Source: an uncultured Thermus sp. (GTDB taxonomy: Bacteria; Deinococcota; Deinococci; Deinococcales; Thermaceae). From it: a stretch of 26,372 bases of DNA. The stretch covers positions 1-26,372 of the forward strand of contig CAMTVD010000019.1 of the NCBI GenBank assembly GCA_947085095.1, in the 5' to 3' direction. Of the stretch, positions 21,647 to 25,553 are shown one piece after another. The notes under the pieces are model-generated. The model searched no databases. It worked only from the letters and a program-made list of their open reading frames with translations, and was not told the DNA's origin. Every line of letters starts with the position of its first letter. Positions within the stretch are counted from its first letter, which is position 1. The translations under genes and the position numbers were made by a program.

Positions 21647-22404
21647 TGCTCCTGGCGGTGGACATCGGCAACACCTCCACGGCCCTGGGCCTTTTTGAGG
21701 GGGAGAGGCTCGTCGCCCACTTCCGCATCCACACCGACCGAATGCGGATGGAAAGCGAGTATAGGGTCCTCCTAAAGAACCTCTTCGCCCTGGAGGGCCT
21801 TCCCCCGCCCAAAGCCGCCCTCCTTTCCAGCGTGGTGCCCCCGGTGGAGCGGGAGATGGGGCGGGCCATAGAGGGGCTTTTCGGGGTCAAGGCCCGCCTG
21901 GTGGACGCCGAGGCCACGGGCCTCCAGGTACTCATAGACAACCCCAAGGAGGCCGGGGCTGACCGCCTGGTGAACGCCGTGGGGGCCCTGGCCTACCCCA
22001 GCCCCACGGGCCGCTACATCGTGGTGGACTTCGGCACCGCCACCACTTTTGACCTGGTGGAGGCCCCCAACCGCTACCTGGGCGGGGCCATCACCATCGG
22101 CCCCCAGACGGCGGCGGACGCCCTGGCGGCCCGCACCGCCAAGCTCCCCCGTATAGACCTGGTGCCGCCCAAGGGGGTGGTGGGCAGGAACACCCTGGAA
22201 GCCCTCCGCTCCGGCCTCGTCCTGGGTTACGCCGCCCTGGTGGAGGGGATGGTGCGCCGCTTCAAGGAGGAGACGGGGGAGGCCCTGGTGATCGCCACCG
22301 GGGGGTTTGCGGAAACCCTCAAGGACCTCTGCCCCTCCTTTGACGTGGTGGACGAGGACCTCACCCTCAAGGGCCTCCTGCGCATCCACCAGGGGCAAGG
22401 GTGA
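21646..22404 (+). CDS. coaX: Type III pantothenate kinase
   Basis: DIGNT, SSVVP, GADR, VDFGTATT, GGAI, ATGG. Confidence 0.95.
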   Translation: MLLAVDIGNTSTALGLFEGERLVAHFRIHTDRMRMESEYRVLLKNLFALEGLPPPKAALLSSVVPPVEREMGRAIEGLFGVKARLVDAEATGLQVLIDNPKEAGADRLVNAVGALAYPSPTGRYIVVDFGTATTFDLVEAPNRYLGGAITIGPQTAADALAARTAKLPRIDLVPPKGVVGRNTLEALRSGLVLGYAALVEGMVRRFKEETGEALVIATGGFAETLKDLCPSFDVVDEDLTLKGLLRIHQGQG

Positions 22405-22732
22405 ACCAGTAAACATACCGCCCCTCCTCGGGCAGGAGGGCATACCGCCACCCCTCCACCCGGTACCAGCCCAGGTCCCGCCAGCGCCCTGGCCGCTCCC
22501 GCAGGAAGACCCGCAAGGGGATGCTCTCCCGGTGGGCCAGGAGGAGGCGGAGGTTGCCCCCAAGGGGCTCCTGGTGCCCCCGCTTCCCCTCCCCCATGTA
22601 GAGGATGCGCCCATCGGGCAAAAAGACATTCCGGTAGCCCGACTCCCCCCGGTCCACCAGGAGGCTTTGCCGACCGATCCCCCTGCGGGTGCCGTGGAAG
22701 GCAAAGACCTCGCTCCAGCTCAAGCTTGACAC
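22367..22732 (-). CDS. Stand-alone SRA/YDG-like domain protein
   Basis: GYRN...ILYMGEGKRGHQ...GGNLRL...PLRVF...LGWYRV matches the SRA-type YxGEG..GxQ...GN pattern. Confidence 0.65.
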   Translation of the reverse strand: MSSLSWSEVFAFHGTRRGIGRQSLLVDRGESGYRNVFLPDGRILYMGEGKRGHQEPLGGNLRLLLAHRESIPLRVFLRERPGRWRDLGWYRVEGWRYALLPEEGRYVYWFTLAPGGCAGGP

Positions 22733-22754
22733 TTCCCTTTCCCCCGGCTATCAT
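22726..22754 (+). promoter_or_regulatory. Sigma-A promoter of tRNA operon
   Basis: TTGACA (22726-22731), 17 bp, TATCAT (22749-22754). Confidence 0.85.
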
Positions 22755-22797
22755 CCTAAGTGCCCGGTCGGACGCCCCCGACCTGGCGACAACCCCA

Positions 22798-22874
22798 GGC
22801 CCCGTGGTGTAGTTGGTTAACACACCCGCCTGTCACGTGGGAGATCGCGGGTTCGAGTCCCGTCGGGGCCGCCA
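22798..22874 (+). tRNA. tRNA-Asp(GTC)
   Basis: 77 nt, acceptor GGCCCCG/CGGGGCC, anticodon loop CTGTCAC, GGTTCGAGTCC, encoded CCA. Confidence 0.97.
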
Positions 22875-22875
22875 G

Positions 22876-22951
22876 GCCGAGGTAGCTCAGTCGGTAGAGC
22901 ATGCGACTGAAAATCGCAGTGTCGGCGGTTCGATTCCGCCCCTCGGCACCA
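22876..22951 (+). tRNA. tRNA-Phe(GAA)
   Basis: 76 nt, acceptor GCCGAGG/CCTCGGC, anticodon loop CTGAAAA, GGTTCGATTCC, encoded CCA. Confidence 0.97.
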
Positions 22952-22953
22952 GA

Positions 22954-22986
22954 CGGCCTGCCCCTTTTGGGGCAGGTCGCTTTTTG
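22954..22986 (+). terminator. Intrinsic terminator of tRNA operon
   Basis: CCTGCCCC-TTTT-GGGGCAGG stem followed by CTTTTT. Confidence 0.85.
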
Positions 22987-23135
22987 CTACAATGCCCCCG
23001 AAGGGGGTGGGAAGCTGAGGAGACCTTCGCCATATTGGGGTGCCATTTGAGGTAAGTATTCGCTGAGGCATTGCGGTAGGTGTTTTTTCGGTATTGCCGG
23101 TGTATTCCAGGGGCGCATTAAAGCTGGATGTTTTG

Positions 23136-23181
23136 GGGCCCGCGTGGGGCGCTTAACCCCCACGGGCCCGCGTATTTTTTA
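23136..23181 (+). terminator. Putative intrinsic terminator in the intergenic region
   Basis: GGGCCC(GC)GTGGGG...CCCCACGGGCCC then GCGTATTTTTT. Confidence 0.55.
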
Positions 23182-23343
23182 GGCCATTCCCCCCTCAAAA
23201 CCCCGAGGCTTCCCCCCGTTGCTCTAGCCCCGCTACCCAGCCGGCACCGGGTGTGCTAAGCTGGGTAGCGTAGGTCTGATCAAATCCAAACTATTGTGAC
23301 CCTATAGGCATTTTTTGCCGTGCTGATACCTATTCTTCCCCTC

Positions 23344-23372
23344 TTGACAGTATTGACCCGACCCCCTAAAGT
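23344..23372 (+). promoter_or_regulatory. Sigma-A promoter of the small peptide gene
   Basis: TTGACA (23344-23349), 17 bp, TAAAGT (23367-23372). Confidence 0.75.
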
Positions 23373-23428
23373 GAAAGACAAGCAAACGGGGCCGACCCCC
23401 CGGAAGCGGAGGAAAAGGAGGGATGAAG

Positions 23429-23518
23429 ATGAAGAAGCTGATCGCTCGTGTGTTGGTGCTTCTCGGCAGCTTGATCGCGCTTGGGCTCGCGGCTGGGGCC
23501 GCTACGCGCTGGGAGTAA
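23429..23518 (+). CDS. Small hydrophobic peptide MKKLIARVLVLLGSLIALGLAAGAATRWE (29 aa), candidate signalling-peptide precursor
   Basis: AGGAGG (23416-23421) 7 nt before ATG 23429 (alternative ATG 23423), upstream promoter, immediate terminator, signal-peptide-like architecture. Below the ORF-track cutoff. Confidence 0.85.
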   Translation: MKKLIARVLVLLGSLIALGLAAGAATRWE

Positions 23519-23522
23519 GGGG

Positions 23523-23550
23523 GAGGCCAGCTAAGCTGGCCTCTTTATTT
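23523..23550 (+). terminator. Intrinsic terminator after peptide gene
   Basis: Perfect 9-bp stem GAGGCCAGC-TAA-GCTGGCCTC followed by TTTATTT. Confidence 0.85.
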
Positions 23551-23553
23551 CTC

Positions 23554-23583
23554 TTGCCTTGGCGGAGGAGGGTTTGCTACACT
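23554..23583 (+). promoter_or_regulatory. Putative promoter for HD-GYP/DUF5317 genes
   Basis: TTGCCT, 18 bp, TACACT, 9 nt before ATG 23593. Confidence 0.55.
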
Positions 23584-23592
23584 CAGGCCACC

Positions 23593-25008
23593 ATGGCCTT
23601 TAGACGCCTGGAGCTTCCTCCGCCGCGGGTGCTCCTTCTGGTCCTCTCGGCCTTCCTGGGCTTCCTGGCCCTGGAGGGCTTCCTGCTTTGGGCCTACGGG
23701 GGCACCCCTCTCCGCTTGAGCCTCCTGGACCTGCTTTTCTGAGGCGCGCTCATGCTTTGGAGCGTATTTGTTCGCGTCCCGCTCCCCTTAAGCGCCAGCA
23801 TGAGCCAGTTCTTTATCTTTGCCTTGGCTTTAGTCGTTCTTACGGCTCCATGGGTCTCGCCCCTGTTGAGTTTTGCCCTCCAGTGGGGCCGAAAAGTTTG
23901 GTACAAGGAGCTCTTCAACAGTTCCCAGATTGGCATGGCCACCGCCCTGGCGGCCCTGGCCTGGCAGTTCTTCCAGCAGAACCCCGTCTACCTGGGTCCC
24001 TGGAATGTGTCGGCAGGGGTGGGCATCGCCACCGCTTCCCTGGCTTTTTTTGCGGTCAACACCACTTTGGTGACCACCGCCATCCACCTGGCCAACAACG
24101 TTCCCTGGCGCGAAGTGTGGCGCAAAAACTACAGATGGCTCGCCTCCAGCTACCTCCTCCTCTCCCCCCTCGCCCTCCTCCTGGCCCGGGCCTATGAGAC
24201 GCCCCTCCTGGGCAACTGGGGCGGGTGGACGGTGCTCTTCTTCCTCATCCCCCTCTACTACAGCCGCTTCTACTGGGACGAGAAGGTGCGTCTGGAAGCG
24301 GCCTTTGACGCCACCCTGGAAACCCTCATGCACGCCCTCGAGGCCAAGGACCCCCAGACCCGCCTCCACTCCGAGCGCGTGGCCGAGATCGCCCGGGACC
24401 TAGCCCGGAAGGTCAAGAACGGGGACGAAGCCTACGCCCAGGCCGTCTACCGGGCAGCCCGGCTCCACGATATTGGCAAGATCGGCATCCCCGAGTTCGT
24501 CCTCCTGAAGCCCGGCTCCCTCACCCCTGAGGAGCGCCAGGCCATAGAAAAGCACCCCGAGTTCGGAGCGGAGATGCTGAAGCCCGGGGCCAAGGTGGCC
24601 TTTGAGCCCCTGGTCTATAACATCATCCTCTACCACCACGAGCGCTGGGACGGCCGGGGCTACCCAAAGCGGCTCGCCGGGCACGAGATTCCCGAGGAGG
24701 CCCGCATCGTGGGGCTGGCCGACGCCTACGAGGCCATGACCGCGGGTCGCCCCTACCGCAAGGCCAAGACCCCGGAGGAGGCCTTGGAGGAAATGCAGGA
24801 ACTATCCGGCATCCAGTTTGACCCCCGCCTGGTGGAGGCCTTCATGGAGCTCTGGCAGGAAGACCCCATCTGGCGGGACCGGGAAGCCTACCTCAAGGCC
24901 AAAGCGGAAAAGGAGGGATCCGTATCACGCTTTATCTTGCCGCCGCTCTCTTCGCCCTGGGCCTCGCCCTCGCCCTCGGAGTCCGACCAAAGGACCTCGG
25001 AGGAATAG
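23593..25008 (+). pseudogene. Multi-TM sensor HD-GYP cyclic-dinucleotide phosphodiesterase, interrupted by in-frame TGA at 23740-23742 (may restart at ATG 23752)
   Basis: One frame from ATG 23593 through LLF*GALMLWS. Several TM segments, then EAKDPQT..HSERV, LHDIGK, HHERWDGRGYP, ADAYEAMT, RPYR. Confidence 0.85.
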
Positions 25009-25553
25009 AGCTAAAGGCGGCCTGGGCCTTCCTCCTGGCGGCCCTCCTCGAGGGGGGCCTGGCCTACGGCACCTACCGGGGCCTCTTCCCCCCCGAGGTG
25101 GCGGGCCCCTTGGCCAAGGCCTTGGTCCTCCTCCTGGTGGGCTACGGCCTTTACCAGAACCGCCACCTGAAAAGCCTCTACCTGGTCCTCCTGGGGCTGC
25201 TCCTGAACGCCCTGGTCATCTTCGCCAACGGCGGGCACATGCCCGTGAGCCTCCCCGCCCTGCGCCAGGTAGGCCTGGGGGAGCTGGAAAACCTCTTGAG
25301 AAACCGGAGCGATGCGGTCCACACCCTTCTGGACGAAACCACCCGCCTGCCCTTCCTGGGGGACGTGATCCCTCTACCCCCCCTCGTCAAGGTGATTAGC
25401 CCCGGAGATGTCCTCATCCTCCTGGGCATCGTTGGGGTGGTGGTGGAGGGAGCCCTGCGGGCTGGGGGTTTCCGCCTCCCCCTGCGCCTCGCCGCCCTTC
25501 GCGTGCTGGCCTACCTGGTTCTGGTCCTCCTCCTCCTCGCCTGGCGGGCCTGA
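24924..25553 (+). CDS. DUF5317-like integral membrane protein
   Basis: LNALVIFANGGHMPV, H..LDETTRLPFLGD, ISPGD motifs. The frame is open with hydrophobic sequence from ATC 24924, 7 nt after AGGAGG; the first canonical start is GTG 25098. Confidence 0.8.
   Translation: MTLYLAAALFALGLALALGVRPKDLGGIELKAAWAFLLAALLEGGLAYGTYRGLFPPEVAGPLAKALVLLLVGYGLYQNRHLKSLYLVLLGLLLNALVIFANGGHMPVSLPALRQVGLGELENLLRNRSDAVHTLLDETTRLPFLGDVIPLPPLVKVISPGDVLILLGIVGVVVEGALRAGGFRLPLRLAALRVLAYLVLVLLLLAWRA

Follow-up and report, generated by a model that had tools for sequence, protein, structure and literature searches.

A conserved micropeptide gene linked to a MASE9–HD-GYP membrane sensor and a DUF5317 protein in Thermus

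What is the role of a 29-codon gene that stands directly in front of a gene for a membrane-bound HD-GYP enzyme? The question is raised by a stretch of 26,372 nucleotides from an uncultured Thermus sp. (contig CAMTVD010000019.1 of assembly GCA_947085095.1), analysed as a whole and called the window below. Between positions 23344 and 25553 the + strand of the window carries, in this order, a promoter, a 29-codon open reading frame (ORF), a terminator, a MASE9–HD-GYP gene and an overlapping DUF5317 gene. The small peptide gene, the HD-GYP gene with several membrane helices and the overlapping gene of a polytopic membrane protein, named in a preliminary description of this DNA, are thus all present on that strand. 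The micropeptide is conserved at the amino-acid level, and its gene is kept next to that of the MASE9 sensor in Thermales and in other phyla. The trio probably forms one membrane sensing unit and not a secreted pheromone system. The features of the locus are as follows.

23344..23372, + strand: predicted promoter of the micropeptide gene, TTGACA, 17 nt, TAAAGT; 10 of 12 positions match in a consensus scan, hexamers near-invariant in 20 aligned Thermus-type loci.
23373..23428, + strand: 5' leader of the micropeptide gene; includes a short GC hairpin and, at 23417-23422, the Shine-Dalgarno sequence GGAGGG.
23429..23518, + strand: micropeptide gene, 29 codons (31 from the alternative ATG at 23423), by ORF list, conservation and the ratio of nonsynonymous to synonymous polymorphism (pN/pS).
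23520..23556, + strand: predicted intrinsic terminator after the micropeptide gene; 12-pair stem (hairpin 23520-23546), then a T run.
23554..23583, + strand: putative HD-GYP promoter, TTGCCT, 18 nt, TG-n-TACACT, by sequence reading; the TGCTA..CT element is conserved in relatives.
23593..25008, + strand: MASE9–HD-GYP gene, 471 codons, by Pfam, read-through translation and the aligned ATG of relatives.
23740..23742, + strand: in-frame TGA, codon 50 of the HD-GYP gene; TGG in relatives and public contigs.
24910..24917, + strand: Shine-Dalgarno sequence AAGGAGGG of the DUF5317 gene, within the HD-GYP coding region; 21 of 21 Thermus loci, two of which read AAGGGGGG.
24924..25553, + strand: DUF5317 gene, 209 codons, ATC start; Pfam PF17248, ATC/ATT conserved.

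The micropeptide and its gene

The micropeptide is under purifying selection and hence is the product of a real, unannotated gene. Among 24 Thermus-type sequences, pN/pS in the frame of the ORF is 0.33 over all codons and 0.24 over codons 1–26; it is 0.95 over the three codons before Trp, 0.90 in the second frame and 2.23 in the third. Synonymous turnover occurs at the same columns of the Thermus alignment (Ser as AGC or TCT, Leu as TTG or CTG). Public contigs differ from the window at five positions of the ORF; four of the differences are synonymous third-position changes and the fifth lies in the variable tail. The ORF is also covered by contigs of two metatranscriptome runs; contigs of RNA libraries are no proof of transcription. 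It extends over 23423-23518 (31 codons) or 23429-23518 (29 codons). The Shine-Dalgarno sequence abuts the first ATG. The shorter form is the better call, because the second ATG lies 6 nt past the Shine-Dalgarno sequence and the first is replaced by ATA in one relative.

Separate transcription, claimed in the preliminary description, is in keeping with a predicted promoter and a predicted terminator of the gene's own, both kept in 20 aligned Thermus-type loci. Two promoter-like sites were observed in the region by the consensus scan, against 0.3 expected. The stems of the terminator vary in sequence among the aligned relatives, with pairing and T run retained. The leader (23373-23422, GC hairpin included) is conserved above the ORF itself among Thermus; in an Rfam search of 22700-23800 at E ≤ 1 it was unmatched, and gathering scores were exceeded only by two tRNAs. 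With a strong promoter and a terminator of its own, the peptide could be made in excess of the enzyme and regulated apart from it.

The micropeptide has a basic N-terminus and a single hydrophobic helix, after which come Gly-Ala, three residues that vary, an invariant Trp and one last residue before the stop; in other phyla Gly-Ala and Trp are two or three residues apart. Ala26 and Trp30 are invariant in 48 aligned peptides from several phyla, and Gly28 is present in 41 of the 48. The hydrophobic core is conserved in sequence and not merely in character, with Leu in 44/48 and 42/48 at two columns and Ala in 38/48 at another. In the peptide of the window Lys is confined to the N-terminus and Cys is absent. 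The N-terminus of the non-Thermales peptides viewed is commonly Met-Lys-Trp or Met-x-Lys-Trp; conservation of Lys-Trp there goes beyond the needs of a mere signal peptide. Features of a Sec-type signal peptide are present as well: a Lys-rich start, an uncharged stretch of 13–19 residues and, in agreement with the established -3/-1 rule for signal peptidase, invariant Ala at -1, Gly at -2 (41/48) and Ala, Ser or Val at -3.

The micropeptide is matched by neither a Pfam nor an NCBIfam model. A profile of the 48 peptides, searched against 1.84 billion proteins, found 88 representative clusters at E ≤ 0.001. All are 25–94 aa long and most match at the extreme C-terminus; none is fused to a larger protein. 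One of 58 aa (P0131) consists of two peptide units in tandem in one frame; it may have arisen by natural fusion or be an artefact of read-through. Variants of the tail track phylogeny, so independent changes are too few for an analysis of co-variation between peptide and receptor.

Linkage of the peptide gene to MASE9

Conservation within Thermales was followed in 48 loci of Thermus, Meiothermus-type genera and a second family that includes Oceanithermus-like genomes. Micro-ORF, MASE9–HD-GYP gene and DUF5317 gene are found in this order at 44 of them. The exceptions are a deletion remnant in which both the peptide gene and the 5' end of the HD-GYP gene are lost (L027); two loci cut short by contig ends, L044 and L096, of which the latter continues, with its peptide, on another contig (L191); and one genome (G031) in which the MASE9 gene lies 1.4 Mb from the DUF5317 gene. 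In this last genome the peptide gene is directly upstream of MASE9 (L190), and no peptide gene is found beside DUF5317. A second, diverged trio is present in three Thermus genomes (L047 in G011, L091 in G012 and L092 in G002); its peptide ends in GGGWVW, its DUF5317 copy has about 164 aa, and the HD-GYP match of L047 is split over two frames.

DUF5317 was found in 46/48 genomes of the family of the window, in 8/8 of the sister family and in 0/82 Deinococcus-type genomes. The two Thermus genomes without DUF5317 are also without MASE9. Among 14 control genomes, DUF5317 and MASE9 occur in the same two, those of T. thermophilus and Thermotoga maritima. Among named DUF5317 proteins, those of Thermus species are closest to the one in the window. 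In the 2.08-Mb genome of the window the Thermales form of the tail motif occurs once, at the micropeptide ORF; a looser form has three other matches, all at the ends of open frames of 127–628 codons.

Beyond Thermales, 80 DUF5317 loci of other phyla were collected by a pattern scan with a small (four-sequence) DUF5317 alignment. By record titles they belong to Chloroflexota, Actinomycetota, Bipolaricaulota, Thermotogae, Bacillota, Sysuimicrobiota and others. Hidden Markov models (HMMs) built from the Thermales proteins were searched against them. An HD-GYP match is present in 52/80 loci and HD-GYP or MASE9 in 65/80, mostly immediately upstream of DUF5317. A frame was counted as a micro-ORF if it has a hydrophobic stretch and then ends, at its stop codon, in [GASD]-x-x-[KRH]-W-x(0-2). 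In six frames of 593 kb there are 45 matches, and 41 of these lie at the 5' end of a detected MASE9/HD-GYP gene. Counted from the side of the enzyme, the motif micro-ORF precedes 40 of the 48 evaluable MASE9/HD-GYP genes, a figure that leaves aside 18 further genes cut by the end of the locus. The scan of DUF5317 neighbourhoods for small ORFs with such a tail, proposed in the preliminary description, thus returned them in front of most of the evaluable MASE9/HD-GYP genes, and the proposal of three genes conserved as a functional unit is supported by these counts in Thermales and beyond.

By gene linkage the tightest partner of the peptide is the MASE9 domain, whatever the output domain. The peptide stays with the MASE9 gene when this lies 1.7 kb downstream of DUF5317 (Chloroflexaceae-type) or is divergent (L149, L168). 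The domain behind MASE9 varies and may be HD-GYP, GGDEF plus HD-GYP (L155) or a histidine kinase (L126). In most lineages DUF5317 is co-translated from the overlapping gene.

Further observations concern single loci. In seven Chloroflexaceae-type loci (L125, L126, L128, L129, L131, L148 and L153) the micro-ORF precedes a MASE9-like gene 1.6–2 kb downstream of DUF5317. L126 (Chloroflexales) is the sole such locus scanned with Pfam; its MASE9-like gene, a likeness that rests on the HMM built here, encodes a histidine kinase (HisKA, HATPase_c). A Thermoleophilia locus (L124) contains two tandem motif ORFs.

The two membrane proteins

The enzyme gene was at first delimited as a 418-codon ORF, 23752-25008. 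Pfam assigns to its product MASE9 (PF20972; 74.2 bits, cut-off 24.3, profile positions 50-197 of 203) and HD_5 (141 bits). This ORF is incomplete, because the MASE9 match begins at profile position 50 and the frame is open from the ATG at 23593, broken by the TGA at 23740-42 alone. The first MASE9 helix is encoded at 23593-23739, the membrane sensor as a whole at about 23593-24300 and the HD-GYP catalytic domain at about 24322-24831. Relatives are 461–486 aa long and start at the aligned ATG. The codon at 23740-42 is TGG in 19/19 Thermus relatives, and position 23742 is G in contigs of 4/4 public runs. In the best DNA match among these contigs that G is the sole difference from the window over 23300-23965; a second difference, C>A at 24169, replaces Leu with Ile. 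On the reading of relatives and public contigs, the TGA is probably a variant private to the assembly or an error, and the natural gene probably has 471 codons.

The catalytic motifs are complete: the window has LHDIGK and HHERWDGRGYP, and the HD and GYP residues H292, D293, G356, Y357 and P358 do not vary in an alignment of 53 sequences. The membrane sensor is fused directly to HD-GYP, so that the absence of a kinase relay, as previously suggested, holds for the window. The putative promoter at 23554-23583 is below the threshold of the consensus promoter scan. TG-n-TACACT 9 nt before the ATG, where no Shine-Dalgarno sequence occurs, suggests a leaderless or nearly leaderless HD-GYP mRNA with a promoter of its own.

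Damage to the HD-GYP gene is seen in several Thermus genomes with DUF5317 intact; assembly errors may explain some of the cases. There is a 0.9-kb insertion with a 281-aa ORF without Pfam match (L029), an interruption by insertion (L022), a frameshift (L094), frameshifts in both the peptide and the HD-GYP gene (L045) and the 5' deletion of L027.

The DUF5317 gene matches Pfam PF17248 with 126.6 bits (cut-off 25) over profile positions 2-150 of 151. Its frame is open over 24822-25553 and contains no ATG, GTG or TTG before 25098, a position well behind the point where both protein conservation and the Pfam model begin. In 26/26 Thermus loci (the 21 already listed and 5 further) AAGGAGGG is followed 6 nt on by an ATC or ATT codon that aligns with 24924. 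The resulting gene overlaps the HD-GYP gene by 85 nt. Annotated DUF5317 proteins of Meiothermus and Oceanithermus begin with Met eight residues upstream of the aligned ATC position. With a start at ATC/ATT, public Thermus DUF5317 genes are annotated 40–45 codons short, and the proteins of 164–169 aa appear to be truncated calls. These annotations, and gene calls of 147–151 aa, lack the first two helices.

A fusion of HD-GYP to DUF5317 by -1 frameshift was considered and rejected. No slippery heptamer is present, the annotated Meiothermus and Oceanithermus proteins have their own Met start, and the N-terminus of DUF5317 would lie outside the cell, whereas HD-GYP is cytoplasmic.

The AlphaFold2 model of DUF5317 (predicted local distance difference test, pLDDT, 91) comprises six helices and, at 25227-25400, a conserved loop of about 58 residues in which short strands occur. 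Invariant in this loop are N-G-G-x-M-P, D147 and S159-x-G-D162. Lys and Arg abound in loops 1 and 3 and behind helix 5, and the conserved loop 4 is net acidic. With the Lys/Arg-rich loops inside, the conserved loop would be extracytoplasmic; it would then face the same outer side as the tail of the peptide, if the Lys-rich N-terminus of the latter is inside.

Searches for relatives of DUF5317 gave the following results. For the whole model, Foldseek found no match in the Protein Data Bank (PDB) at E ≤ 0.001, and VIA-align wide found generic helical hairpins only, with a best Z of 6.8. The conserved loop folded alone (pLDDT 90.4) matched 0 chains at Z ≥ 2 and gave no Foldseek match. The best E of the PDB sequence profile was 0.33, ESM Atlas gave no usable match, and NCBIfam gave nothing. 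By hhalign, 35 DUF5317 sequences compared with 10 PilD-type A24 proteins reached a probability of 0.2% (E 0.29 over 12 columns). Such misses in fold searches do not establish a new fold. Nothing marks DUF5317 as an enzyme; an enzymatic role is likewise compatible with these data.

The surroundings of the trio are of a housekeeping type. Genes for an OsmC-like protein, a type III pantothenate kinase and an Iso_dh-family dehydrogenase flank it, and tRNA-Asp and tRNA-Phe lie upstream at 22798-22951. Between the pantothenate kinase gene and the tRNAs is a 120-codon minus-strand ORF (22367-22729) without Pfam match at E ≤ 0.001. A conserved hairpin is present at 23233-23268, about 80 nt upstream of the peptide promoter, with 9-bp arms CTACCCAGC ... 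GCTGGGTAG. Its pairing is preserved in three arm variants among relatives, and the 3' arm overlaps a TG-n-TAAGCT element.

A proposed membrane subunit weighed against a signal

The micropeptide is proposed, with confidence that is evenly balanced, to be an accessory subunit of the MASE9 sensor that stays in the membrane, DUF5317 being the second partner. The 29-residue product would be a single-pass membrane micro-protein with the N-terminus in the cytoplasm and the Trp tail outside; within the membrane it would serve the MASE9 domain as an accessory or regulatory subunit. DUF5317, translated from the overlapping gene, would be a second membrane partner, with its conserved loop on the outer face, on the side of the Gly-Ala...Trp tail. 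Together, peptide and DUF5317 would control the hydrolysis of cyclic di-GMP (c-di-GMP) by the cytoplasmic HD-GYP domain. The conservation of the helix, both ends and the C-terminal spacing over seven phyla agrees better with a subunit than with a pheromone specific to one species or with a signal peptide alone. On a bolder and unlikely reading, the Lys-Trp-anchored helix would report the thickness or fluidity of the bilayer to MASE9.

Several points weigh against this proposal. The contact of the peptide with MASE9 or DUF5317 is inferred, as are the topology and the direction of regulation. The peptide could also be read as a Sec-type signal peptide, cleavage of which would leave a product of 4–6 residues. 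The three tail residues before Trp are near-neutral in Thermus (pN/pS 0.95) and may be a spacer or a diversifying signal. DUF5317 is intact where HD-GYP is broken and therefore may have a role of its own. No motif ORF precedes 8 of the 48 evaluable MASE9 genes of other phyla. Neighbouring genes and shared ancestry inflate the counts, related genomes not being independent. A three-chain co-fold of MASE9 residues 1-245 of an intact relative (L021), its DUF5317 and its peptide, run with alignments and without controls, speaks neither for nor against the proposal; its interaction prediction scores from aligned errors (ipSAE) were 0.23 and 0.19, the mark being 0.32.

An exported signal is the first alternative and an unlikely one. 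The peptide would be cut after Gly-Ala by signal peptidase I or by DUF5317, releasing 4–6 residues of the form x-x-[K/R/H]-W-x; sensing of these at the outer face by the DUF5317 loop and/or MASE9 would gate c-di-GMP hydrolysis, as an autocrine or quorum cue. Such a signal would account for the n-, h- and c-regions with Ala invariant at -1 and Gly at -2 in 41/48, for the fast variation between Gly-Ala and Trp in Thermus, for a peptide gene with its own promoter and terminator, for a conserved loop that appears to face outward and for the two tandem motif ORFs in Thermoleophilia. It is at odds with a tail motif that is common to seven phyla and not species-specific, and with a conserved hydrophobic core and, outside Thermales, an N-terminal Lys-Trp, neither of which a signal peptide needs. 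The conserved unit contains no transporter, RRNPP-type receptor or known maturation protease, and DUF5317 shows no likeness to proteases in Pfam, fold searches or hhalign. To our knowledge there is no precedent for a product of 4–6 residues directly behind a signal peptide. If the peptide were such a signal, an autocrine or population cue would be coupled directly to c-di-GMP hydrolysis in at least seven phyla.

Phr precursors of Bacillus (RRNPP systems) have a pro-region, are re-imported via Opp and act on cytoplasmic Rap-type receptors. The micropeptide is like them in being a short precursor with a signal-peptide-like front and about five C-terminal residues that are possibly the active part. 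It differs in that Opp- and Rap-type genes are not part of the unit of the window and in that its partner is a membrane sensor.

The second alternative, an Agr-like triad, is very unlikely. In Agr quorum sensing AgrD is the precursor, AgrB the membrane peptidase and AgrC the membrane receptor; DUF5317 would accordingly take the part of AgrB, a membrane peptidase dedicated to maturation of the peptide, and MASE9 would be the receptor of the matured product. The likeness is superficial and lies in the number and type of genes: one for a small peptide and two for polytopic membrane proteins, of which one is small and the other a receptor. The conservation of the three genes together is in keeping with such a triad, as is the position of the invariant D147, S159 and D162 of DUF5317 at or near the outer face of the membrane, on the side of the Gly-Ala of the peptide; the S-x-G-D-V of DUF5317 is reminiscent of the GxGD motif of aspartyl intramembrane peptidases. 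Pfam (E ≤ 0.1), however, places DUF5317 in PF17248 only, neither in AgrB nor in a peptidase family, the A24 prepilin peptidases compared by hhalign were those of the same genome and its relatives (probability 0.2%), and neither the whole model nor the loop alone found a solved fold. The peptide lacks both a Cys or Ser placed to close a thiolactone or lactone ring and a recognition tail at its C-terminus, and it stays with MASE9 where MASE9 and DUF5317 are unlinked. Unlike Agr, the unit of the window has no two-component output, and its tail is conserved instead of hypervariable. The role of maturation enzyme given to DUF5317 in the preliminary description is not sustained by these results. Nor is an Agr-type pheromone, given a peptide without Cys, a tail motif shared across phyla and not diversified, and a membrane helix that is itself conserved.

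A cis-acting leader ORF or small RNA, for example one that attenuates read-through into HD-GYP, with a peptide that is itself functionless, is extremely unlikely: it suits the 5' leader conserved above the ORF in Thermus and the terminator between ORF and HD-GYP, and it is opposed by amino-acid-level constraint with synonymous turnover, by the same peptide build across phyla on unrelated DNA sequence, by the absence of an Rfam match and by an HD-GYP gene that appears to have its own promoter.

For the membrane subunit, the favoured working model is provided by MgrB and SafA, small membrane proteins that modulate the sensor kinase PhoQ in E. coli and Salmonella. The micropeptide resembles them as a single-helix protein of fewer than 50 residues that would act on the membrane or periplasmic part of a sensor. 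MgrB and SafA differ in having no sequence relation to it, in not being encoded beside the sensor, in their narrow taxonomic range and in acting on histidine kinases. In seven phyla the micropeptide gene stands immediately before that of its sensor, and the output that the peptide serves is mostly an enzyme acting on c-di-GMP.

Literature searched outside supplements yielded no paper mentioning DUF5317, and titles and abstracts on HD-GYP and c-di-GMP in Thermus thermophilus contain nothing on the trio locus. MASE9 was defined by Galperin and Chou; in the available part of their text ligand binding within the membrane is proposed and the input signal is given as unknown (bioRxiv 10.1101/2021.11.05.467447). 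Known MASE9–HD-GYP enzymes, TM1467 of Thermotoga maritima and HdgA of Streptomyces venezuelae, have the architecture seen in the window, a polytopic MASE9 domain fused to a catalytically complete HD-GYP (bioRxiv 10.1101/2021.11.05.467447). To these the unit of the window adds two conserved partner genes, and that part of the MASE9 description mentions neither a micropeptide nor DUF5317. Mutants of HdgA, the only MASE9 member studied, have no phenotype according to the available part of the report (PMC6205966).

The locus exposes gaps in annotation: a 29-codon gene without a family model, and Thermus DUF5317 calls that are too short. For MASE9, as for most other membrane sensor domains found in c-di-GMP enzymes, no input is known. 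A conserved micro-protein and a second membrane partner are concrete handles on how the MASE9 class of sensors is switched, and Thermus thermophilus is a genetically tractable organism in which this switching can be tested.

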